Origin: Alphaproteobacteria bacterium
GTDB lineage: Bacteria; Pseudomonadota; Alphaproteobacteria; MPNO01
Direction of reading: 5' to 3'
Assembly: GCA_964291675.2 (NCBI GenBank)
Contig: OZ219866.1
Coordinates: forward strand, 3,168,001 to 3,232,000
DNA length: 64,000 bases
Of this stretch, positions 6,867-59,205 are shown one piece after another. Numbering within the stretch: position 1 is the first letter of the stretch; each line of letters starts with the position of its first letter. Under the pieces are notes generated by a model that made no database searches, had not been told where the DNA came from, and worked only from the letters and a program-made list of their open reading frames with translations. The position numbers were made by a program, and so were the translations under genes.

Positions 6867-7862
6867 ATGATAAGGGCGGCGGTCGTCGGCCTCGGCTGGT
6901 GGGGCCAGCGGATCTGGAGCTCTCTCCAGGGAAGCGAGCGGATCGAGGTCGTGCGGGGGATGGATGTGACCTTCGACCACCTCGCCGAATTCGCCGAGCG
7001 GTCGGGGCTCCCGCTCACCCGGAGCTACGCGGAGGTGCTCGAGGATGCAGCCGTCGACGCGGTGATCCTCACCACCCCGCACGGGCTGCACGAGGAGCAG
7101 GTGGTCGCCGCTGCCGAGGCCGGAAAGCGGATCTTCTGCGAGAAGCCGCTGGCGCTCAACGGCGCATCGGCGGCCCGCATGCTGGAGGCGTGCACCGCGC
7201 GCGGGATCCTGCTCGGCATCGGCCACGAACGGCGCTACGAGCCGGCGCTGATCGAGGTCAAGCGCATGGTCGACGACGGCGAGATCGGGACGCTGCGCCA
7301 TCTGGAGGTCAACTGGTCCTACAGCCTGTTGGCGGGGGCCGCGACGGCGGCCTGGCGCCAGGACCCGGCGCAGGCGCCGGCGGGGCTGATGACCGCGGTC
7401 GGCGTTCACATCACCGACTACCTGCAAAGCATCGCCGGACCCGTCGCCGCGGTGGGCGCGACGCTCAGGCGGCACCGCGAGGACCGGCCCTCCGATGCGA
7501 CGCTCTCGGTCCAGTTCGACTTCGCCTCCGGCGCGACCGGCTATATGTGCAATATCGGGCCGACGCCCTACTACCAGCGGATCACGCTGTTCGGCGACCG
7601 GGGCTGGGTCGAGCACCGCGAGACCGCCCACATCCAGGACCCCGACCCCGCGCTGGTGACCTGGCGGGGAGAGGACGAGGAGATCTGGTCGCGGACCTTC
7701 GATCCGATCGACCAGGTGCGCGCCAATCTCGAAGCCTGGGCGGCGGCGGTCGAGGACGGCGCGGCGTACAAGTTCACCGACCGGCAGAAGGTCCACAATG
7801 TCGAGATCCTGGAGGCGATCGTGAAGTCGACCGAGTCCGGTCGCACCGAGACGGTCGGGTAG
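6867..7862 (+). CDS. Gfo/Idh/MocA family NAD(P)-dependent oxidoreductase
   Basis: VVGLGWWG Rossmann start, TPHGLH, CEKPLA, GVHITD. Confidence 0.9.
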   Translation: MIRAAVVGLGWWGQRIWSSLQGSERIEVVRGMDVTFDHLAEFAERSGLPLTRSYAEVLEDAAVDAVILTTPHGLHEEQVVAAAEAGKRIFCEKPLALNGASAARMLEACTARGILLGIGHERRYEPALIEVKRMVDDGEIGTLRHLEVNWSYSLLAGAATAAWRQDPAQAPAGLMTAVGVHITDYLQSIAGPVAAVGATLRRHREDRPSDATLSVQFDFASGATGYMCNIGPTPYYQRITLFGDRGWVEHRETAHIQDPDPALVTWRGEDEEIWSRTFDPIDQVRANLEAWAAAVEDGAAYKFTDRQKVHNVEILEAIVKSTESGRTETVG

Positions 7863-9844: not shown

Positions 9845-10423
9845 ATGGCGAATTCGATCCACACGCCGAGCAAGGCGGAGTTCGAGAGCCGCATCGGCAG
9901 GTTCGAGGATTTGAAGCCGATGTCGACCGCGGGCGAGATCGGCTGGGTCGGGCAGGACGCGATGGACATCATCTTCGCCCGCAAGCTGATGCCGGTCATC
10001 CTGGACGACGACACCAAGAACCCGTTCGGCAGCGACGCGCCGATCTTCGGCGCCGCCGGCTCGACCATGTTCATCTCGATCATGCCGCCGGGGCAGGGGC
10101 CCTGCCTGCACTCGCACAACACCACCTTCGAGACCTTCATGGTGCTGCAGGGCGAGATCGAATACTACGTCGGCGAGCCCGTCGAGCACCGGGCGCGGCT
10201 CGGCAAGTGGGACACCTTCTCCTGCCCGCCCGGCGTCTATCGCGGGTTCCACAATGTCGGCGACATCGACGCGGTTCAGCTCACCGTAATCACCGGGCTC
10301 GGCGAAGACCGGGACGACGTCTCGATGCCCGACTCCATCGCCCGGCAGATCGAGGGCGCGCACGGCGACAAGGTGCTCGAAGCGATCCAGGGCGTGTTCC
10401 ACTTCGACCCGCCGGCGGCCTGA
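9845..10423 (+). CDS. Cupin domain protein
   Basis: PGQGPCLHSH...ETFMVLQG...PPGVYRGF cupin motifs. RBS GGAG precedes ATG 9845. Confidence 0.85.
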   Translation: MANSIHTPSKAEFESRIGRFEDLKPMSTAGEIGWVGQDAMDIIFARKLMPVILDDDTKNPFGSDAPIFGAAGSTMFISIMPPGQGPCLHSHNTTFETFMVLQGEIEYYVGEPVEHRARLGKWDTFSCPPGVYRGFHNVGDIDAVQLTVITGLGEDRDDVSMPDSIARQIEGAHGDKVLEAIQGVFHFDPPAA

Positions 10424-49771: not shown

Positions 49772-49787
49772 TGTTTCACGTGAAACA
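49772..49787. promoter_or_regulatory. parS: parS-consensus palindrome
   Basis: TGTTTCACGTGAAACA is a perfect match to the ParB/Spo0J binding consensus. Confidence 0.7.
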
Positions 49788-49997
49788 TTAAATAATACAG
49801 GTTTCGGATGCGTAATCAGGCCGTATCAGCGCTTGTCAGGATTTGTATGGAGTGGGTGTTTTCTGCTTTATTCCAATAGCTTGCGGATGTATCGGATTGC
49901 CATTCGGTGGCTAGCGTTTCCCCCTCTGATCCACGGTTGACTTTCATGTGTTGAGGTTCTAGATGATATTTCGAGAGATTTTAGAGAGGGTGTCTCT

Positions 49998-51230
49998 ATG
50001 TCAACACTGTCCGGAAAACGGGTCGCCCAGCTCAAGCTCACATTGAATAAGCGCAGCGTCGAGGCCCTCATGCCGGCCGACAAACCCTTCATCGCCTGGG
50101 ACGACAGGCTGACGGGGTTCGGGGTCAGGGTACAGCCCTCGGGGGTGCGGTCCTATCTGGTGAACTACCGCGCCTCGGGCGGCGGCAGGCGGGCCGCCAA
50201 CCGGCGGCTCGTCATCGGCCGGCACGGGCGGGTCTCGGCAGAGCAGGCAAGACGCATCGCCCACGAGACGCTCGGCAAGGTCGCCGCCGGGGAGGACCCG
50301 GCGGAGGGGCGCACCCGGTCGCGGTCGACGCCCACGCTGCGCGAGGCCTTCGAGGAGTACCTGTCGATGGGGCCGGAGAGGAAGCCGCGCACCGTCGAGG
50401 TCTACCGGAGGACGGTGTATCACGATCTCGAGCCCTGGCTCGACCGGTCGCTCAACACAATCTCCCGCAAGGACGTCGAGCAGTGCTTCAACCGGCTGAC
50501 CTCCGAGATCGGCTGGGTGGGGGCCAACTCGGCGCTCATCATGCTGGGGGCGCTGTACCGGCGGCAATGCGTCGACGTCCAGGGTCTGCACAACCCGGTG
50601 GCGCAGTGGCGCGCGGCGGGCGGGCGGCTGCACCGCCAGCGGCGGCGGCGCATCCAGCCTCCGGCCGAGGTTCTGCCGCGCTGGCACAGGGGGATCGAGA
50701 AGGGGGTTCGCAACCCGGTGGCGCGGGATGCGCTGCGGCTCGGCCTCTACACCGGCATGCGCCATTCCGAGGTGCTGGAGCTACGCTGGGACATGGTGGA
50801 CCTCGATGCGATGACGCTGACGGTCGAGGAGACCAAGTCGGGCGAGCCGCTGGAGATCCCGATCGTCCGGCAGGTCGGGGAGATCCTCCGACGCCGCGCG
50901 GCCGAGCGCGGGAACTTTCCGGCGGAGAGCCGCGTCTGGGTGTTCCCGTCGGAGACCAGCGCCTCGGGGCGGCTCGTGACGACGCAGCAGCTGAACGCGC
51001 GGATCGGCGAGGCGGGCGGTGCGAAGTTCTGGTTCCATGCGCTGCGCAACTGCTTCATCACGGTGGCGGACCGGGAGCTGATGCTGCCGACCAGTCTCAC
51101 CAAGCGGCTGGTCAACCATGCGAGGCCCAGCGACGTCACCGAGGGCTACGCGTCGGACTGGACGGCGGACCAGCTCCGCGAGGCCGCGCAGCGCATCGCC
51201 GATCGCATCGATGAGCTGATCAAATGTTGA
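49998..51230 (+). CDS. Tyrosine recombinase/integrase with N-terminal arm-binding domain
   Basis: WDDRLTGFGVRV arm-binding region. Catalytic residues in TGMRHSE, TKSG, HALR, VNH and EGY. Confidence 0.93.
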   Translation: MSTLSGKRVAQLKLTLNKRSVEALMPADKPFIAWDDRLTGFGVRVQPSGVRSYLVNYRASGGGRRAANRRLVIGRHGRVSAEQARRIAHETLGKVAAGEDPAEGRTRSRSTPTLREAFEEYLSMGPERKPRTVEVYRRTVYHDLEPWLDRSLNTISRKDVEQCFNRLTSEIGWVGANSALIMLGALYRRQCVDVQGLHNPVAQWRAAGGRLHRQRRRRIQPPAEVLPRWHRGIEKGVRNPVARDALRLGLYTGMRHSEVLELRWDMVDLDAMTLTVEETKSGEPLEIPIVRQVGEILRRRAAERGNFPAESRVWVFPSETSASGRLVTTQQLNARIGEAGGAKFWFHALRNCFITVADRELMLPTSLTKRLVNHARPSDVTEGYASDWTADQLREAAQRIADRIDELIKC

Positions 51231-51241
51231 GCTCAACATTT
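51222..51241. repeat. Perfect 20-bp palindrome over the integrase stop codon
   Basis: AAATGTTGAG-CTCAACATTT. Confidence 0.8.
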
Positions 51242-51634
51242 TGACTATGCACTTATCGGTCGTGCGCAGCAGGACCGATAAGAGCATTGAGCTGAGCCGC
51301 ACGGCGGAGCGGTGACTCCGAGCTACGGCAAAGTATCCGCTCAGCAAGAGTCGACTACGCCAGGAAGTCACAGAAATGGGCGCGCGGTCCGATTTCATGG
51401 TTTAACTTGTCCACAAATTCGGTTGTTCCGGTGAGGAACTGACGACCGCGAGCGGGAGAACGAAAAAAGAAGGCAATTACATACCTAACTGTGCAAACAC
51501 AGAAACCAAACTGTCCCCAACGGCATTCCAACCGGAGACTACAGGACCATCACTGATCCAAACAGGCTAACTGTGAAAACCGTCCAAAAAAACACCATAA
51601 GCCTAAGACCAAACCCCCACAAAAAACACCTTGC

Positions 51635-51663
51635 TTGACCTCCTTAGATCGCCCTGCTATTCG
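51635..51663 (+). promoter_or_regulatory. Sigma70-like promoter of the tRNA gene
   Basis: TTGACC (51635-40), 17 nt, TATTCG (51658-63) with extended TG. The -7 T is missing, which is common in alphaproteobacteria. Confidence 0.55.
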
Positions 51664-51671
51664 TTCAACGT

Positions 51672-51759
51672 CTAGTAGTGGCGAAAATGGTAGACGCGAC
51701 CGATTACCAATCGGTTAAGTGTAATGCTTGTGGGGGTTCGAGTCCCTCCTACTAGACCA
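51672..51759 (+). tRNA. Class II (long variable arm) tRNA with anticodon ACC (Gly) on a tRNA-Leu-like body
   Basis: Acceptor CTAGTAG/CTACTAG, A73, encoded CCA. D arm GCG-AAAATGGTAGA-CGC. Anticodon arm ACCGA-TTACCAA-TCGGT. 16-nt variable stem-loop. T arm GGGGG-TTCGAGT-CCCTC. Confidence 0.9.
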
Positions 51760-51810
51760 GCGGGGACAGACTTCGGCATTGCTGATGTTTGGTCCCCGCA
51801 CTTCTATTTA
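51760..51810 (+). terminator. Long hairpin directly after the tRNA CCA, possible terminator or processing signal
   Basis: GCGGGGAC...GTCCCCGC closing stem with further internal pairing, followed by ACTTCTATTT. Confidence 0.5.
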
Positions 51811-51822
51811 TCCACCTACAAT

Positions 51823-52167
51823 CTACTCCCCGCCGCGTTCGACCGCCTTCAAATCAGTCAACACCGAAACAGCATTGTCTATCAGATAACCCTTGGTCTG
51901 GACCAATGAATCCCCGCTATCGGAAAATACCGAGTCCATCTCGCCTTTCATTCCTTCCAAAGCCTCAATATCACGATCCGCAAGAGCATTGCCGACGTGC
52001 CCGATAAACGAGATAAGTCCATCAACCGATATATCCGAACTATCCTCCTTCAACCCGGCTAATTCCTTCACTCGTTCTAACTCTTTCAAGTATTTCCCTT
52101 TCCTCAAATCTCGCAACAAGTCCTTGAACCAATTAGGTCTCCGCTTTGCTGACTGTAGAATTGTCAT
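51823..52167 (-). CDS. Hypothetical protein (114 aa)
   Basis: ATG preceded by a GGGGAA purine run, protein-like composition in AT-rich DNA, divergent from the transposase. Confidence 0.6.
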   Translation of the reverse strand: MTILQSAKRRPNWFKDLLRDLRKGKYLKELERVKELAGLKEDSSDISVDGLISFIGHVGNALADRDIEALEGMKGEMDSVFSDSGDSLVQTKGYLIDNAVSVLTDLKAVERGGE

Positions 52168-52208
52168 CTTTCCCCACTAAAATTTATCAAACAATCACCA
52201 ATAAGCCC

Positions 52209-52237
52209 TTGACAAAAGCACCATAAAAGCCTATATT
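52209..52237 (+). promoter_or_regulatory. Near-consensus sigma70 promoter of the transposase
   Basis: TTGACA-17 nt-TATATT. Confidence 0.7.
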
Positions 52238-52265
52238 AACACCATCAAACAAGGGATATTAGACG

Positions 52266-53201
52266 ATGAAAGCGCCCGGCAAATCGGACAGAGACGGCAT
52301 CACAATAATTCAATTATTCAAGATGTTTCCTGATGATGATACCGCTCAGGCTTGGTTTGAAGAAAAGCGGTGGGGAAAAGACAAAGATAACCCGACTTGC
52401 CCCAAGTGTGGCACCATTGACAAGACCAAGCGCACTCCGACACACACTATGCCCTATTACTGCAATTCGTGCCGGAGAGGTTTCAGTGTCCGCACCGGAA
52501 CCGCAATGCAGAAATCTCAAATCGGCTACCAGAAATGGGCAATTGCGATCTATATGACCATTACCAGCCTGAAAGGGGTTTCCTCAATGAAGCTCCATAG
52601 GGAATTGGGGATAACCCAAAAGTCAGCTTGGTATATGGAGCATCGCATTCGCACTGGCTTTGGTGGCGTTGATCTGCCTTTCGCCGGACCGGTCGAAGCG
52701 GACGAAACCTATATCGGCGGGAAGGAAAAGAACAAGCACAAGTACAAGAAGCTGAATGCCGGACGCGGCGGGGTCGGCAAGAGTATTGTTGCTGGCATTA
52801 AGGGTCGCAAGACCAAACAGATTACCGCCAAAGTCGTTTATGAAACCTCTGCAATGACTTTACAGGGTTATGTCCGGGCGAACACCAAAGAAGGCACGAT
52901 GGTCTATACCGACGAAAGCAAGTCCTACAAGGGTCTGCCCTATCACCAGTCAGTCAATCATACCGCCAAGCAATGGGTTGTCGGACAAGCCCACACAAAC
53001 GGGATGGAGAATTTCTGGTCTATTTTCAAGCGAGCGTATCACGGAACTTTCCACCGGATGAGCGCAAAGCACCTGCATCGCTATGTCAATGAATTCGCCG
53101 GTCGGCACAATATCCGGGAAATGGACACCAAGGACCAGATGACGGCGATCTTCCAAGGGATGGTCGGCAAGAGCCTGCCCTATGCCGATCTGGTGGCTTG
53201 A
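52266..53201 (+). CDS. IS1595 family DDE transposase
   Basis: N-terminal zinc ribbon CPKCG...YCNSC, FSVRTGT, VEADETYIGG, YTDE, HTNGMENFWS, YVNEFAGRHN. Confidence 0.95.
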   Translation: MKAPGKSDRDGITIIQLFKMFPDDDTAQAWFEEKRWGKDKDNPTCPKCGTIDKTKRTPTHTMPYYCNSCRRGFSVRTGTAMQKSQIGYQKWAIAIYMTITSLKGVSSMKLHRELGITQKSAWYMEHRIRTGFGGVDLPFAGPVEADETYIGGKEKNKHKYKKLNAGRGGVGKSIVAGIKGRKTKQITAKVVYETSAMTLQGYVRANTKEGTMVYTDESKSYKGLPYHQSVNHTAKQWVVGQAHTNGMENFWSIFKRAYHGTFHRMSAKHLHRYVNEFAGRHNIREMDTKDQMTAIFQGMVGKSLPYADLVA

Positions 53202-53227
53202 CAAGCCGTTTCCCTTCGTCCTAGCCT
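53198..53227 (+). promoter_or_regulatory. Sigma70-like promoter overlapping the transposase stop codon
   Basis: TTGACA (53198-53203), 18 nt, TAGCCT. Predicted start ~53234 coincides with the first base of the RNA stem. Confidence 0.55.
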
Positions 53228-53233
53228 TTTCCC

Positions 53234-53386
53234 TGCTATCGCACATAGACGCGCTGAGTCGGGTCGCCCGCTGAATAGAACAGCCGCAAGACCCGGCAGG
53301 GGTAGCTCCCCCGCCCGGCGAATAGGCGGGGTCTCTCACTTTCTGTGTGCGATAGCAACGGCCCGACACCATTCGGGCCGGTTGCT
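53234..53386 (+). ncRNA. Candidate structured RNA/5' leader, copy A
   Basis: 16-bp closing stem TGCTATCGCACATAGA/TCTGTGTGCGATAGCA. Inner stems GTCGGGTC/GACCCGGC and CCCCGCC/GGCGGGG. 3' hairpin CGGCCCGA-CACCAT-TCGGGCCG. Homologous to copy B. Confidence 0.65.
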
Positions 53387-53409
53387 GACTGGCGCAATGG
53401 AGGCGGGAA

Positions 53410-53832
53410 ATGAAGAAGATCGTGCTGGCGGGGATGGTTGCGGCCCTTATGGGTTGGAGTGGTTCGGTGGAGGCAAAGACTACCAAGTGTATTTTGAAGG
53501 GAGTCGGTTTTTCCGATGTAGATGCTCGCCAGTCTGCGATACTGGAACAAGTAGGAGCTACTTGCGAAACGATCATAGATGGACGCGCGATACAAAGACG
53601 GCAATCAGATACTACCGATATTTGCGGGCAAGCTAAGCAGGCTTGTAGCAATGTAATTTATTCCTGTAGGCGGAACGCGAGACTCGCACAAGCCGAACGT
53701 TATATGTGCCAGAATGCCACCAGTCATCGCATTTTGCTAAGTTGTCTCAAGACAAGAAACACGGCGGCAAAGCATTGCCGGTCTGCGACAAATTGCTTGA
53801 GGCAATACGGTTGTATGGAAAGTGTCCAATGA
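53410..53832 (+). CDS. Small secreted cysteine-rich hypothetical protein
   Basis: GGAGG RBS, Sec-type signal peptide MKKIVLAGMVAALMGWSGSVEA, 10 Cys. Confidence 0.75.
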   Translation: MKKIVLAGMVAALMGWSGSVEAKTTKCILKGVGFSDVDARQSAILEQVGATCETIIDGRAIQRRQSDTTDICGQAKQACSNVIYSCRRNARLAQAERYMCQNATSHRILLSCLKTRNTAAKHCRSATNCLRQYGCMESVQ

Positions 53833-54137
53833 CTGTCGTTCATGCGCTGGTGCTTGTGGCCTATAGCGCACTGGCTCAAGAAGTCACTCGGACTAAGATC
53901 ATGTCTTTTCACAAGAACCATTTCTCTTGTGTTCAGACTATGAATAAGGAACGGTTCAGGGGTCGCCGGTTACAATTCAATGAGAACTACGTCTGCCTAC
54001 AGCTACAGGATTCCCACATAGGCTCACAGCTGCTACGTATGGGCGGGAATGATCGGATTGTGATTCATGGAACCAAGCGGTTCTTTAACAAGCCAAAGCG
54101 GGATAGGTGGTATCAGAAGCGGAAATGGGATAGGTGA
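53829..54137 (+). CDS. Hypothetical protein
   Basis: ATGA coupling with the upstream gene, hydrophobic N-terminus. Confidence 0.55.
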   Translation: MTVVHALVLVAYSALAQEVTRTKIMSFHKNHFSCVQTMNKERFRGRRLQFNENYVCLQLQDSHIGSQLLRMGGNDRIVIHGTKRFFNKPKRDRWYQKRKWDR

Positions 54138-54334
54138 AGGAGGATGAAGGGATGACGAAAACGAAGGTTGTCAAAGGCGAGAACTTTGATATTGATCTTC
54201 AAGCCGAAATCAACGGACAATGGGAAACGGTTGTCACCATTCCTTGTTCATCGGAGGAACAGCATGAGAAACTTTCGAAAGGAATACTTGATTGGGGGCA
54301 CTATGTAATGAATGAAACTCGGTGTAGTCCTTAA
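54134..54334 (+). CDS. Hypothetical small protein
   Basis: Overlaps the upstream stop. Alternative ATG after GGAGG. Confidence 0.5.
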   Translation: MKEDEGMTKTKVVKGENFDIDLQAEINGQWETVVTIPCSSEEQHEKLSKGILDWGHYVMNETRCSP

Positions 54335-54443
54335 TCCCTGTTCGTCCTTTTTGTCATATGTCTTGACGAATCGAAGCTGGTCTCGATCTAACGTGTAGAT
54401 TTGATCCACTTCACCGTTTGAACGGGTTTGGTGGAAAAGTCAA

Positions 54444-54464
54444 TAGACAATAGTCTATTGTCTA
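54444..54464. promoter_or_regulatory. Perfect 10-1-10 palindrome, candidate operator
   Basis: TAGACAATAG-T-CTATTGTCTA. Confidence 0.5.
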
Positions 54465-54801
54465 CCGGTAGGGCCTTGTTCCGTTTCGCACTGGACTTCT
54501 TCGCTGGCTCTGGCCCATTTGTGGTTGGATCGGATCACGAAGAGACAGACGACGCGGACGATGCCCAGTAAACGCAATCAAACGTATCAAATCGATGTCG
54601 AGGTAGTCACCCTGAATTCGGGTCAGCCGGCAGTTCGCCTTGCATGCCTTTGGTGCAATTGTCTCAGCCCCTCCCCGTTCCGGTCCGCGATCGCCCTCAA
54701 TTCTATCGCTCCTCGATGCAGCACAGCTGGCACAGGCTCTTTCAATAGACCTCTTTCGCGCCGTGACATGCGGTTGAAATCGCGGCTGCCGGGGCCTTTA
54801 G

Positions 54802-55134
54802 TCATGGTCCGCTCAAATTCTTGAGTTCTTCTTCGTAAAACTTCTTTCGCAAAGCCTTGTAAACCCGTTCGTATTCCCACTTCCCGGCAATACAGGTCGG
54901 CCAATAAGAGGCGTCTTTTCTGGAACAGTGGCTTAGCCTCTTTTTTCCTTCAGACGTTCCGGTTATGGCCTTGAAGGCTCGATAATAAGCCCGTTTGTAC
55001 GCCTTTTCGGACAGCTTTATTGCCGCAATCATCTCCTCGGCAAGAAGAACGTCCTCCTTCTCGCCGGAAGCCGCTTCGCTCGTCGTCGTAACCACCAACC
55101 CGACTACCACTGACACCAAGAGGACTATACGCAT
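54802..55134 (-). CDS. Small secreted hypothetical protein
   Basis: GGAGG RBS, signal peptide MRIVLLVSVVVGLVVTTTSEA, two Cys. Confidence 0.7.
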   Translation of the reverse strand: MRIVLLVSVVVGLVVTTTSEAASGEKEDVLLAEEMIAAIKLSEKAYKRAYYRAFKAITGTSEGKKRLSHCSRKDASYWPTCIAGKWEYERVYKALRKKFYEEELKNLSGP

Positions 55135-55157
55135 GCCACCCTCCCCGGCTTGTGTGT

Positions 55158-55310
55158 CGGCCCCGGCTGGTGCCGGGCCGTGTCATCGTCGAGCAGAGAG
55201 CAAGAGGTTCTACCTTTTCGCCCGTGGCAGCGTAGCTACTCCCTTCCGTCGATCGGGCTCTTCGATTCAACAGAAGACGCAACGTGGCGGGCTCCGCTCG
55301 ATCAAGTGAC
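55158..55310 (-). ncRNA. Candidate structured RNA/5' leader, copy B
   Basis: Closing stem GTCA..TCGAGCGGAG/CTCTGCTCGA..TGAC. Shares motifs TGAATnGAAnAGCC, GGGAGTAGCT, GGCGAAAAGG and ACGGCCCGGCACCA with copy A. TTGACG upstream at 55345-55340. Confidence 0.6.
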
Positions 55311-55735
55311 GGGAAGATGCTCCGTCGAACCGAGAAAAGCGTCAACCCCCCTGTGAGTCTTGCGGGATTTCGACGGCGATGCTACGGTGAGAAATGGTAG
55401 TCTCGGCCACAAGGGTCGGGGCACTGAATCACCGATGGGGCGGCATCCGAATCGGTTCACACAGGTCCAGCATGGATAGGCATCCCACGGCAGACTTTCC
55501 CTCGGAACGAACCTGTGACGGAACGAATTGCGTAAACCGGCCAAGCGTGCGCTCACCGGTAGGCGAGGAAACATATGGAAGACCCGCGTGCTCAATGCTT
55601 TAGGGAACTTCGAAGGCTCGAAAGTCTAGGCCATGAGGGCCTTCAGTATCTTTTTCACGAGAACCGGGAAACCGCTGAAGGCGGGATCGATGCCTGGATA
55701 ATCTGGGATCGGACCGGACAGGTCTTGGCAAGCGC

Positions 55736-55999
55736 ATGAGCCGGATCGTACGAAAAAGGAGGTCCGGATGCCGAATTGGGATAGCAACCGATGTTGCTGT
55801 TCGGGTGGCCGATCTTAAATCGGCCGGGAAAGTACCAAATGACGCGAAGTACAGAACGCTTTCTTCCGGATTGACATACAAACAGGCGAACGCTGAAGAG
55901 AAAGTACGACGACAGCGTTGTGGGCCGCATTGCGATGGAGAGTTGGGCGGTAGACCGAAGCCAGGAAGAGTATGGAGCGTCTATAGGATTGACTGGTGA
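55736..55999 (+). CDS. Hypothetical protein (87 aa)
   Basis: ORF with protein-like pattern (CRIGIATD...GLTYKQA...CGPHC...WSVYRIDW), convergent on the IS1595 remnant. Confidence 0.55.
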   Translation: MSRIVRKRRSGCRIGIATDVAVRVADLKSAGKVPNDAKYRTLSSGLTYKQANAEEKVRRQRCGPHCDGELGGRPKPGRVWSVYRIDW

Positions 56000-56003
56000 T
56001 CGT

Positions 56004-56234
56004 TCAGTCGGCCACCAGATCCCGATACATCAGCCTGCAGCCCGTGAGCGCTGCAACGCCAGTCATCGTCTGCGCGTCCGTCTAAGCGCGCCGGGCGTTG
56101 TGCTGGCCGGAGAACTCTTTGACGTATCGTTCGGGGTACGCCTTCGAGATCTTGCGGTAGACGCATTTGTGCGCTCGTTTCAGCGTCGCAGAGAATCTCG
56201 CTATTCCCTCCGTATGAACGTCCCCGCGGACATA
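56004..56234 (-). pseudogene. Degraded IS1595 transposase C-terminal remnant
   Basis: YVRGDVHTEGIARFSATLKRAHKCVYRKIS...RYVKEFSGQHNAR* then ...RLMYRDLVAD* aligns with the C-terminus of 52266-53201. Confidence 0.8.
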
Positions 56235-56289
56235 GACCGCCGCCGGCCCGCACGGCTGGGGAAAGGGAACGGCGGATACCTGCAAGGAG

Positions 56290-56553
56290 ATGTGGAGGCA
56301 GGTCGCCGCGGACATCAATTCCCTCCCGCCCGACGTGCGCACCCGGCAATACACCTCGGCGATCGTCAAGTCCGCGCAGGCGATGTACCGCTGGTGCGAG
56401 GCGAACATGGCCTCCTGCGCGCGCCAGAGGGAGGAGGTCGAGCCGCGGGGATGCGCCCTGATCCCAGGGGTCGTCACCTATACCCTGAATCGAAAATTGT
56501 CCTGGACGGTGAACTGCACGAACACGACCTTGATGCTGCCGGGGAAGTGCTGA
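56290..56553 (+). CDS. Hypothetical Cys-containing protein or gene fragment
   Basis: ORF with host-like codon usage; no recognisable domain. Confidence 0.35.
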   Translation: MWRQVAADINSLPPDVRTRQYTSAIVKSAQAMYRWCEANMASCARQREEVEPRGCALIPGVVTYTLNRKLSWTVNCTNTTLMLPGKC

Positions 56554-57051
56554 GCGGTGCTGCGCGACCCTCTCACTTATCTGAGGGTGAACGAGGCGGC
56601 GTGTCGGGGGAATTAGGAGTTCTGCCCCTTTCTTATTTACCCGCCCGGCCTGAGCGGGTTCAACCGTGCCGGTGGATCGGGAGATTGGCGATATGAAGTG
56701 CTGGGTCGGCATCTCTATGGACGTTGCGGCTCATGTCGCCCCGCTCAAGGCCGCGAACTTGGTCCCGGCCGACGCCTCGTGGAGGACGCTGGCCGAGAAG
56801 CTTACCTACGACGAGGCCGTGGTTCTCGAATACTCCGAGCGAAGGGAATGCGGCCCCCTTTGCCGGGGCGCGGGTCGCGCCGAAGAAGCGCCGGATCGCC
56901 ACCTCGGGTCCGTGATCTCCGGGGCGGCGTGCCCCGCCAACCCGAGACCCTGCAACCCCCAACCCGACACCGACCAACTCAAATCACGGCGCTACGAAGG
57001 CGTCGAACACCCCCATGCGCGCGCAAAATCAGGCGACAATCGCTCTGTTCC

Positions 57052-57627
57052 ATGAATAAGTCGGGCTACCACGTCGAGCCGTACACCCCCCATGCGACGG
57101 CGCCGATGGGCACATGGGGGAACGTCGGCGGCGCACTCTCAGCGCAGACCGTCGCGAGCTCGTTCAAGAGCGACTTCTCGGCACCATCCACTACCGCTAC
57201 AACGTGGTGGCCACCGCAGTCCCCGCGAACGGCTATGTCTACGAGGTTCGCGGAAACCATTTCTACGACACCTACATTCCTTCCGGGGCAACAACCGAGC
57301 GCTGGCGGCAGCGCGCCGATCCGCCGGGATGGCTGGGCGAGGGCAACCGGACGGAGCTTCTGTCCCGTACGAGCGCCACGGGCGACTGGGGCTACGTCAC
57401 CCACTCCAACAGGGTCGAATACCTGAGGGCCTTCACAGCGGGCACGGCCGAGCATACAGAGCCGATCTGGACTCGGCTCGGGACGGCGGCGGAGGGACGA
57501 CCAACGTCTTCGACTGGGCGAGACGCTGGAAGACTACGAGGATCGGGTCCCGGCGGACGATGCGATCGCCGCCGCGGCCGTGGAGGCGAGGCGCGAGGCG
57601 CATGCGGGGTGCACCGGCGATGGCTGA
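57052..57627 (+). pseudogene. Frameshifted hypothetical gene remnant
   Basis: Protein-like segments in successive frames (MNKSGYHVEPY.., ..GTIHYRYNVVAT..YDTYIP.., ..TLEDYEDRV..*). Confidence 0.45.
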
Positions 57628-58354
57628 TCACATGAAATCCCGTCGACGCCCCTCAGCGCGCCGCGCGCAGGGACAACTGCGATGACAGATGGCGCAGGTT
57701 TCGGTGAATGAACTCGATAAAAAAAGATATGTCTTCCATATAGTGCCGCGCTTCGAGTCGCTCCACCTGCTCATACGAGTAGCGCGCCTTATAAACCATC
57801 ACGTCTTGGTCGAAATACTCGAGAATATCTTCCAAAGTGGACAGCCTACGGCGGGCAGGCGGTACGGGAGGGTTGGCGGGGTCTTCGAAGTGCAGGTAGG
57901 CGACCATCTTAGTGTTGCAGCCTATGTCCTGGGAGAGCCTGTTGAGGCGCACCTTCTCCAGATTGGGCAGGAGGCTGTACAGTTTTACCAGACCGTGCGT
58001 GTTGTCGTATGGAAGTTCACTTATCCGGAGCATCAGCTTGAACATTAGCTCTAGGGATGTTCCTAAATTGAAGTGCGAGACCGCCTTCATGGACGCGCAG
58101 GCGTCGGAGTTCTCGTCCACATTGGCCTTTCGTATCCACGCTTCCAAGAGGCGGGCGGCCTCCTTGAAGTCATGAATATTTTGGCAGAGAAACGTGAGGG
58201 CGAGCCTCTGTTCTGGGTTAGACATTATTGGGTTTCCTTCTCTAGCGCGACCCTGGAAGACTACGAGGACCGGGTCGCGGCCGACGATGCGATCTCCGCC
58301 GCCGCGCTCAAGGCCTCGCGGGACGCGCACGGGGTGTGCGCCGGGCATAGCTGA
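57523..58354 (+). repeat. Imperfect 105-bp direct repeats (57523-57627 and 58250-58354) flanking the HEPN gene
   Basis: They encode TLEDYEDRVPADDAIAAAAVEARREAHAGCTGDG* and TLEDYEDRVAADDAISAAALKASRDAHGVCAGHS*. Confidence 0.75.
57653..58225 (-). CDS. HEPN-like domain protein
   Basis: SLELMFKLML...THGLVKLYSLLP...ARYSYE pattern of HEPN-fold proteins; lower GC than host genes. Confidence 0.6.
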   Translation of the reverse strand: MSNPEQRLALTFLCQNIHDFKEAARLLEAWIRKANVDENSDACASMKAVSHFNLGTSLELMFKLMLRISELPYDNTHGLVKLYSLLPNLEKVRLNRLSQDIGCNTKMVAYLHFEDPANPPVPPARRRLSTLEDILEYFDQDVMVYKARYSYEQVERLEARHYMEDISFFIEFIHRNLRHLSSQLSLRAAR

Positions 58355-58952: not shown

Positions 58953-59205
58953 AGAGAGCCCCCGGCCTTCGCCATCGCAGACCAATGGGAGGCACGCCAT
59001 GCGGATTCGCCGGCCGTCGCAGCGCAGCGCACACACGTGCCGAGATCAAGCGCCGAACCAACGTCGTCGGCATCTTCCCCAACGAAGACGCCGTCACCCG
59101 CCTTCGGCGCCTGGTTCGGACGTATTCTGCGGAGAGAGCCCCCGGCCTTCGCCATCGCAGACCAATGGGAGGCACGCCATGCGGATTCGCCGGCCGTCGC
59201 AGCGC
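58953..59205 (+). repeat. Perfect 73-bp direct repeat (58953-59025 and 59133-59205)
   Basis: AGAGAGCCCCCGGCC...GGGAGGCACGCCATGCGG...GTCGCAGCGC occurs twice, 180 bp apart. Confidence 0.9.
59041..59105 (+). pseudogene. IS256-family transposase fragment
   Basis: EIKRRTNVVGIFPNEDAVTRL matches the IS256/mutator C-terminal motif. Confidence 0.7.

Follow-up and report, generated by a model that had tools for sequence, protein, structure and literature searches.

A tRNA with a leucine-type body and a glycine-type anticodon loop

The window analysed here is a 64-kb stretch (contig OZ219866.1, positions 3,168,001 to 3,232,000) of an alphaproteobacterial genome, G000, which comprises 4.8 Mb in two contigs at 69% GC and encodes a two-piece tmRNA of the alphaproteobacterial kind. 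ARAGORN called one tRNA in the window, an 88-nt gene at 51672-51759 (+) with the anticodon ACC at 51706-51708, situated between the tyrosine integrase of a genomic island and a transposase gene of the IS1595 family. The tRNA scored 50.8 bits against Rfam RF00005 (gathering score 29) and spanned model positions 1-71 of 71. Read from the sequence, it consists of a 7-bp acceptor stem made up entirely of Watson-Crick pairs and beginning with C1:G72, U8, a 3-bp D stem with the D-loop AAAAUGGUAGA, a 5-bp anticodon stem closing the loop UUACCAA with U33, a 16-nt variable region that forms a 4-bp stem including one U.G, U48, a 5-bp T stem including one G.U with the T-loop UUCGAGU, and A73 followed by an encoded CCA. 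The original prediction, made from the DNA letters alone, had described a complete 88-nt cloverleaf with ACC, A73 and encoded CCA, together with the long variable arm, this D-loop and U48, and every one of these elements was found in place.

The sequence was compared with independent data. Positions 51254-58000 showed no differences in run X1, the probable source run, and positions 51522-52773 showed none in a contig of run X2, which belongs to a different study. Because the contig from the other study is identical, the window tRNA is not an assembly artefact, and the one-off assembly error that the original prediction had allowed for is ruled out. Two further runs, X3 and X4, contain only small parts of the region, covering the transposase and a neighbouring 114-amino-acid open reading frame (ORF) in part and the tRNA not at all, and no conclusion was drawn from them. 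The host also carries an ordinary set of tRNA-Gly genes (GCC, UCC and CCC) and five tRNA-Leu genes; the ACC tRNA is therefore an extra gene and not a replacement.

In place of tRNAscan-SE isotype models, we used a pairwise ranking and a covariance model, R1, built from two ACC tRNAs themselves, the window gene and a second copy found in G004, the genome of a sister species in the same genus. A blastn search of the 88 nt against 60 relatives returned ten non-self matches, namely the G004 copy and nine ordinary tRNA-Leu genes that were 67-70% identical to the whole tRNA. The ten nearest among 113 other ARAGORN calls were likewise all tRNA-Leu (69-73% identical in the pairwise ranking), and the best non-self matches to R1 in 12 genomes of the genus were tRNA-Leu sets at 62.9-76.6 bits, followed by tRNA-Gly(UCC) at 51.2 and tRNA-Ser at about 48. 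The body is thus of the Leu type, as originally proposed.

The identity elements point the same way. In E. coli, leucylation needs A73, A15-U48, G18G19 and A20a, while the anticodon and the variable arm are dispensable (PMC9976931). All four elements are present in both ACC copies, with numbering by inspection, which bears out the earlier assignment against the E. coli list. The same source gives U73, G1-C72, C35 and C36 as the bacterial tRNA-Gly identity set (PMC9976931), and against that list the window copy retains only C35 and C36; U73 and G1:C72 are absent, as had been predicted. The three host tRNA-Gly genes are 74-75 nt long with U73, whereas the ACC copies have A73 and variable arms of 16 and 11 nt. 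The anticodon loop of the window tRNA is that of host tRNA-Gly(GCC) with the exception of an A at position 34. Leu anticodons, NAG or YAA, always contain A35, and both copies instead have ACC; in place of the U73, G1:C72 and short class I variable loop of a tRNA-Gly, the window copy has A73, C1:G72 and a class II arm. Judged by sequence, then, the anticodon is all that sets the window tRNA apart from tRNA-Leu and all that it would share with tRNA-Gly, and it reads as a chimera in design, with a Leu-type body and a Gly-type loop.

A homologue with the same anticodon loop inside an IS1595-family element

The copy in G004 is an 83-nt tRNA, also called as ACC by ARAGORN and 69% identical to the window tRNA. 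The two have in common the anticodon loop UUACCAA, A73, CCA, A15, G18G19, the UAG of the D-loop (the G004 D-loop is GAACUGGUAGA) and U48, the U that precedes the T stem in both. The acceptor stem of the G004 copy is different and GC-rich, with G1:C72 and C2:G71, and its variable region is 11 nt long compared with 16 nt. In an alignment of the two copies, 40 of 40 stem cells are paired, and 11 of the 20 pairs are changed on both sides (7 of 7 in the acceptor stem, 2 of 5 in the anticodon stem and 2 of 5 in the T stem) with none broken. None of 500 shuffles reached 40 paired cells or 11 double changes, and slid controls gave 0-2 such pairs. A heavily diverged but fully compensated pair with an untouched loop is the pattern that would be expected from purifying selection on a working ACC tRNA. 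Across 20 family genomes, these two are the only Leu-type D-arms that precede an anticodon without A35, and both have ACC. The original prediction had considered that homologues might all carry Leu anticodons; the sole homologue found has ACC in an identical loop.

Searching IS1595 neighbourhoods for homologues, as had been suggested, led to the vehicle of the G004 copy. At the matching site, G004 carries an insertion of 6.5 kb that G000 lacks. The insertion is an IS1595-family element of 6455 bp with perfect 24-bp inverted repeats (L038:3906-3929 and 10337-10360) flanked by the 8-bp target duplication TATCGAAG. The tRNA lies inside it at L038:10200-10282, 54 nt from the right repeat. The transposase (L038:4143-5084; Pfam DDE_Tnp_IS1595, 1.1e-36) is 50% identical in amino acid sequence to the window transposase (157 of 317 aligned columns). 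The rest of the element consists of an IS1-like gene and ORFs without assigned function, among them a 230-amino-acid passenger with an Atlas score of 0.96 to clusters described only as 'hypothetical protein'. The element is single-copy in G004.

Apart from the tRNA, tblastx found that the window and G004 loci share only the IS1595 transposase and a small palindromic repeat. This repeat, about 120-140 nt long, occurs in the window at 53227-53370, just after the IS1595 gene, and at L038:5460-5597 and 7442-7557; in G004 it recurs many times, in either orientation. For the IS1595 family, 'transporter' insertion sequences that carry passenger genes have been described (PMC3129680, citing Siguier et al. 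2009). Our literature search found no report of a tRNA gene as the passenger of an IS1595-family element.

A gene 3.8 kb from the G004 tRNA, at L038:14090-15487 (+), encodes a 465-amino-acid protein with a C-terminal domain of the cytidine/deoxycytidylate-deaminase fold. It was considered as a possible editor of A34 and dropped, as it lies outside the G004 element in conserved chromosome common to G000.

The window copy lies in an integrative island

In G000, the tRNA lies 1.9 kb inside an island of about 46.5 kb (C2:3217790-3264351), 440 nt past the integrase stop codon and at the start of a low-GC patch. The site is empty in G009, G010 and G001, which join window position ~49790 directly to sequence 46.5 kb further on in G000. 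The 11-bp direct repeat GTGAAACATTA is found at both junctions, at 49780-49790 (+) in the window and, beyond the window, ending next to C2:3264351; with the integrase at one end and the empty site in relatives, this identifies the region as an integrative island. The tyrosine integrase (49998-51230, +) matches Pfam Arm-DNA-bind_3 (3e-15) and Phage_integrase (1.2e-13), and copies 84-88% identical to it exist elsewhere in G000 and in sister genomes. The cargo includes a TrwC/TraI relaxase-helicase, a NACHT NTPase, an Eco57I/MmeI-like methylase and Tn5-like, rve and IS1595 transposases, and the whole resembles an integrative mobilisable element that has picked up genes of a defence type.

The low-GC patch (51242-56000, by composition; about 42-62% GC against 69% for the genome) holds the tRNA and the IS1595 transposase gene. 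The latter (52266-53201, +) encodes 311 amino acids, matches Pfam DDE_Tnp_IS1595 (2.5e-36) and Zn_ribbon_IS1595, and is single-copy in G000; its relatives include proteins 71-77% identical. P0005, a 231-amino-acid protein from another assembly, matches the last 231 residues of this transposase at 98% identity. None of the other 11 genus genomes matches the window from 51242 to about 59100. The tRNA had been described as mobile. That description stands as regards the island, which is missing from three sister genomes, whereas an IS1595 element could not be demonstrated in the window; terminal repeats and a target duplication enclose the tRNA in G004, and no repeat partner was found for the window copy.

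Signals around the tRNA gene

The original prediction had also assigned the tRNA its own sigma70-like promoter and a 3' hairpin. The hairpin is real and strong: directly after CCA, positions 51760-51799 (+) fold into a terminator-like structure of -27.3 kcal/mol (z -5.17; 0 of 200 shuffles equally stable), followed by a U-rich stretch. A simple terminator scan detects only its inner stem, 51773-51785. The promoter claim fared less well and is weak. A sigma-70 consensus scan gave no site upstream of the window tRNA; its single match, at 52209-52237, lies ahead of the transposase. By eye, a possible promoter can be read at 51634-51662 (+), stopping 10 nt short of the start of the tRNA, with the boxes CTTGAC (51634-51639) and CTATTC (51657-51662) spaced by 17 nt, an arrangement that we take to resemble the alphaproteobacterial promoter consensus. 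Over the 45 nt that precede them, the window and G004 tRNA genes also align loosely, which argues for common descent of the tRNA cassette.

Codon usage and aminoacyl-tRNA synthetases

Of its Gly codons, the host uses GGT least: over 1033 long ORFs, GGT accounts for 2418 of 59220 (4.1%). In the two IS1595 transposase genes it makes up 20-26% of Gly codons (6/30 in the window and 6/23 in G004), in agreement with the earlier observation that the window transposase uses GGT for Gly. For E. coli tRNA-Gly mutated to ACC, it is reported that, with an unmodified A34, third-base discrimination among Gly codons is lost (PMC6103715), and an ACC-mutated tRNA-Gly is described as active in elongation in a second paper (PMC4928997).

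The leucyl-tRNA synthetase (LeuRS) gene, leuS, is single-copy in the four genomes checked. In G000, leuS (C2:881849-884406) matches the LeuRS model in two overlapping pieces, indicating a frameshift or an assembly indel, while the sister genomes give one intact match. Genes for glycyl-tRNA synthetase (GlyRS), either glyQ/glyS or the dimeric type, were not found in G000, which is 93.7% complete, or in G001, and are present as glyQS in G004 and G010; a local tblastx of the G004 glyQS genes on G000 gave nothing real, and this absence was not used as evidence. No synthetase domain was detected by Pfam among 19 window ORFs and 10 ORFs of G004.

Proposed function and alternative explanations

The reading that we favour, tentatively and with somewhat less than even confidence, is that this is a maintained, transposon-borne tRNA that is charged by the host LeuRS and reads GGU, perhaps all GGN codons. 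The host enzyme, ignoring the anticodon as its E. coli counterpart does, would recognise A73, A15-U48, G18G19 and A20a and attach leucine; EF-Tu would deliver the leucylated tRNA to the ribosome, where it would compete with tRNA-Gly(GCC) at GGU. An unmodified A34 may extend its reach to further GGN codons, and the outcome would be low-level substitution of Leu for Gly. Because GGU is rare in the host (4%) and frequent in the two IS1595 transposases, mistranslation would chiefly affect newly acquired genes of low GC content, the transposase of the element itself among them. Self-limitation or regulation of the element, a penalty imposed by the host on foreign genes, or mere tolerance are all possible roles, and we make no choice among them. 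The two copies, both from one alphaproteobacterial genus, would then be the known members of a small mobile tRNA family.

Several points weigh against this reading. GGT stands at Gly positions common to both transposases, and Leu at GGU would harm the element's own transposase, so a benefit to the element from reading GGU as Leu is hard to see. The window acceptor stem (C1:G72, A73) is Pro-like and unusual for tRNA-Leu; a phage tRNA-Pro(UGG) at L013:8476-8552 (-) has exactly this stem and A73. The window IS1595 copy has no inverted-repeat partner detectable by repeat search, diagonal scan (16/20), local alignment or motif search, and the link to the insertion sequence in G000 is consequently one of adjacency. 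The family has only two members, and the compensatory changes come from just these two sequences, so that their statistics are weak and relatedness in itself can beat a shuffle control without any constraint. The LeuRS identity rules were established in E. coli and a few other species and are carried over to this genus by analogy. Transcription, processing, charging and ribosomal use are each predictions from sequence, and the upstream consensus scan, as described above, does not help the first of these.

C35 and C36 are positive GlyRS determinants, described as universal for tRNA-Gly (PMC9976931), and the loop differs from that of tRNA-Gly(GCC) at position 34 only, so that some glycylation is possible. 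Human GlyRS is also reported to charge tRNA-Gly with G34A (PMC4928997). Taken to its conclusion, this would make the tRNA a rare-codon helper, charged by GlyRS through C35/C36 and decoding GGU as Gly for GGU-rich mobile genes in the manner of phage tRNAs. The gap between host (4.1%) and transposase GGT usage and the shared Gly positions at which GGT occurs would suit such a helper, as would the glyQS-type GlyRS of G004 and the G1:C72 and C2:G71 of its tRNA copy. Both copies nevertheless have A73 and not the bacterial U73, and A15-U48 and the Leu-type D-loop are retained on a class II body in each of them, for which there would be no reason in a Gly tRNA; we also know of no class II tRNA-Gly. 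On balance, a helper seems quite unlikely. Charging with proline, through recognition of C1:G72 and A73 of the window copy by prolyl-tRNA synthetase (ProRS), would substitute Pro for Gly in the manner of the actinomycete tRNA-ProX; E. coli ProRS charges tRNA-ProX despite its non-Pro anticodons, all of which have A34 (PMC11415595), and the acceptor match to the phage tRNA-Pro noted above is in its favour. Against proline, C1:G72 is not shared by the G004 copy, which has G1:C72; the tRNA lacks G35 and G36 and has a class II body of the Leu type, and no extra synthetase gene was seen among the scanned ORFs near either copy. This makes proline very improbable.

Other explanations dispense with decoding or with selection. 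The gene might encode a tRNA-shaped RNA that acts off the ribosome, perhaps charged, as a decoy or substitute for a tRNA nuclease, as an amino-acid donor for a transferase or as a regulator. Among irregular tRNAs encoded close to mobile elements or toxin-antitoxin genes, some are charged yet unused in translation, or inactive (PMC5389517); the island carries defence-type genes (the NACHT NTPase and the Eco57I/MmeI-like methylase), and a protein-recognition site could likewise explain why the entire anticodon loop is strictly conserved. We give this little weight, as tblastx found no partner gene common to both loci except the IS1595 transposase, the neighbouring ORFs matched no defence or tRNA-enzyme family (PADLOC on nine window ORFs; Pfam and NCBIfam), and the hallmarks of an elongator, including the encoded CCA and the T-loop, are intact. 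A neutral hitch-hiker, once a tRNA-Leu, then picked up by mobile DNA and altered in its anticodon by drift, and at present silent or harmless and free of selection, would account for its presence in only 2 of 12 genus genomes at a single copy each, for the lack of a consensus promoter in the sigma-70 scan, for the lack of homologues in the other collections searched and for the decayed insertion-sequence remains in the low-GC patch. Drift would have had to make at least two base changes (by inspection) to turn any Leu anticodon into ACC, and to leave two diverged copies with the same anticodon and 7-nt loop. Eleven compensatory pair changes with zero broken pairs are not a product of decay, and CCA, T-loop and D-loop are all intact; this explanation, too, we consider to be of low probability.

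The reading as a maintained, leucylated tRNA also has a stronger form, which we regard as unlikely. Here the IS1595 transposons of the genus would carry a dedicated 'recoding' tRNA that dispenses with a partner synthetase by borrowing the anticodon-blind host LeuRS, so that GGU would partly mean Leu and codon usage would act as a filter between self and non-self. Host genes using GGC would be spared, while GGU-rich incoming DNA and the transposase would be mistranslated, making the tRNA a mobile mistranslation module, composed of RNA only, in defence or in the self-regulation of transposition.

Comparison with known systems

Few natural tRNAs with a mismatch between identity and anticodon are known (nev-tRNAs, allo-tRNAs and actinomycete tRNA-ProX), and their purpose is unsettled. 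To our knowledge, ACC is an anticodon otherwise avoided by bacteria. The closest precedent for the proposed mechanism is the nematode nev-tRNA-Gly, a class II tRNA derived from tRNA-Leu with a Gly anticodon for a rare codon, which is described as charged only with Leu and as reading GGG as Leu in vitro (PMC3333845). On that description, nev-tRNA-Gly is eukaryotic and chromosomal with the anticodon CCC; the tRNA studied here is bacterial, has ACC with A34 in a full Gly-type loop and travels on a transposon or island, and its leucylation is predicted. The tRNA-ProX of Streptomyces and Kitasatospora, paired with ProRSx, resembles it in the disagreement between body and anticodon, the otherwise rare A34 and the unusual G21 (PMC11415595). 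In that report, tRNA-ProX has a class I Pro body, A33, A15-A48, Ala, Asn or Thr anticodons and a co-encoded synthetase (PMC11415595). By comparison, the ACC tRNA has a class II Leu body, U33, A15-U48, no synthetase gene seen nearby and an IS1595 vehicle.

Allo-tRNAs are likewise bacterial, with a long variable arm and an anticodon mismatched to identity. They often occur close to transposon-related or toxin-antitoxin genes, some act as toxic missense suppressors in E. coli, and their defining trait is an 8/4 or 9/3 acceptor/T branch, with mostly Ser identity (PMC5389517). The ACC tRNA instead has the canonical 7/5 branch, A73 and a Leu-type D-loop; its acceptor stem is 7 bp and its T stem 5 bp, and U8 and the C after the T stem cannot pair. 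As a vehicle, the G004 element resembles the IS1595 transporter insertion sequences (PMC3129680): together with its transposase, several kilobases of passenger DNA lie between terminal inverted repeats, and an 8-bp duplication flanks the whole; it differs in that its passenger is a tRNA gene, and the ends of the window element were not found. Phage and genomic-island tRNAs, too, sit on horizontally acquired low-GC DNA and serve a codon rare in the host. Their bodies and anticodons match, whereas those of the ACC tRNA do not.

What appears to be new, from sequence comparison, is that a bacterial tRNA combines a Leu body with a Gly(ACC) anticodon, does so with no synthetase dedicated to it and is carried by an IS1595-family element. 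This would add to the mismatched tRNAs a bacterial kind, with Leu body and Gly anticodon, that can do without a private synthetase and is a passenger of an insertion-sequence family, and the two diverged copies with their identical loop offer a compact system that can be cloned and tested directly. Should the tRNA prove to be leucylated and to decode GGU, deliberate mistranslation could spread horizontally as a single gene of about 90 nt, and the tRNA would be a natural test of whether differences in codon usage can direct mistranslation at foreign genes. If it were glycylated instead, it would be the first class II tRNA-Gly that we know of, which would also be notable.

Distribution of the tRNA and minor observations

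Our homologue scans detect sequences that match exactly or nearly so, in sampled sets of genomes, and the following describes what was found in what was searched. A pattern of Leu-type D-arm plus ACC loop occurred in 2 of 12 genus genomes, one copy each. Across 78 genomes of the order it matched in G000, G004 and G037, the last of which was rejected as a coding stretch with no tRNA, and it matched none of 400 further genomes of the class (only G000 among 401). In viral contigs the same pattern gave 18 loci, none of which (0/18) ARAGORN called as a tRNA. With blastn, 51600-51830 had no match in phages and one 77% match, to part of the tRNA body, in plasmids; the low-GC patch (51231-56200) had no match in plasmids or phages, and only the IS1-like part of the G004 element matched plasmids. 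An exact 5'-half pattern gave no hits in viral, genome and metagenome contigs, and a 3'-half pattern none in metagenome contigs. A gapped acceptor-stem pattern in viral contigs picked up L012, which is not a tRNA, and the L013 phage tRNA-Pro, and both were rejected as homologues. The latter gene is part of a 31-tRNA cluster and has a T arm near-identical to that of the window tRNA.

A scan with a D-arm 20-mer gave 12 loci, seven of them ordinary tRNA-Leu genes from scattered phyla, and none of the 12 had an IS1595 transposase or a window-type integrase nearby. Class II tRNAs of the Leu type that share A73 and the D-arm 20-mer occur on two Gemmatimonadota contigs from metagenome-assembled genomes (MAGs), at L021:5116-5201 (+) with a Val anticodon (CAC) and at L025:5811-5898 (-) with an Arg anticodon (GCG), each one base from a Leu anticodon. 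In a Flavobacterium tRNA cluster, L017:5243-5327 (-) has a Leu-type D-arm and T-arm, a GUG loop and unpaired acceptor halves, and is probably a decayed tRNA-Leu.

A 114-amino-acid ORF (51823-52167, -), taken from the ORF list and of uncertain status as a real gene, separates the window tRNA from the transposase; it had no Pfam, NCBIfam or PADLOC match, and its best Atlas score, 0.77, is below the lead threshold. The small ORFs of the low-GC patch likewise had no match in Pfam, NCBIfam or PADLOC. A motif at about 51401-51412, TTTAACTTG, resembles the left repeat of the G004 element and is too short to count. The promoter-like site before the transposase (52209-52237, +) reads TTGACA, 17 nt, TATATT, with 11 of 12 consensus matches, and has the motif CTTGACAAAAG in common with the left inverted repeat of the G004 element. 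A degenerate second IS1595 transposase fragment at 56010-56477 (-) was recognised by tblastx to the G004 transposase and matches NCBIfam transpos_IS1595 weakly (E 0.0051). Further along, a 73-nt perfect direct repeat occupies 58953-59025 and 59133-59205, with 180 nt between the two starts, and a 63-nt stretch at 59038-59100 recurs with 100% identity at 8 other places in G000 and at 90-95% in three more, and may be the end of a multi-copy element.

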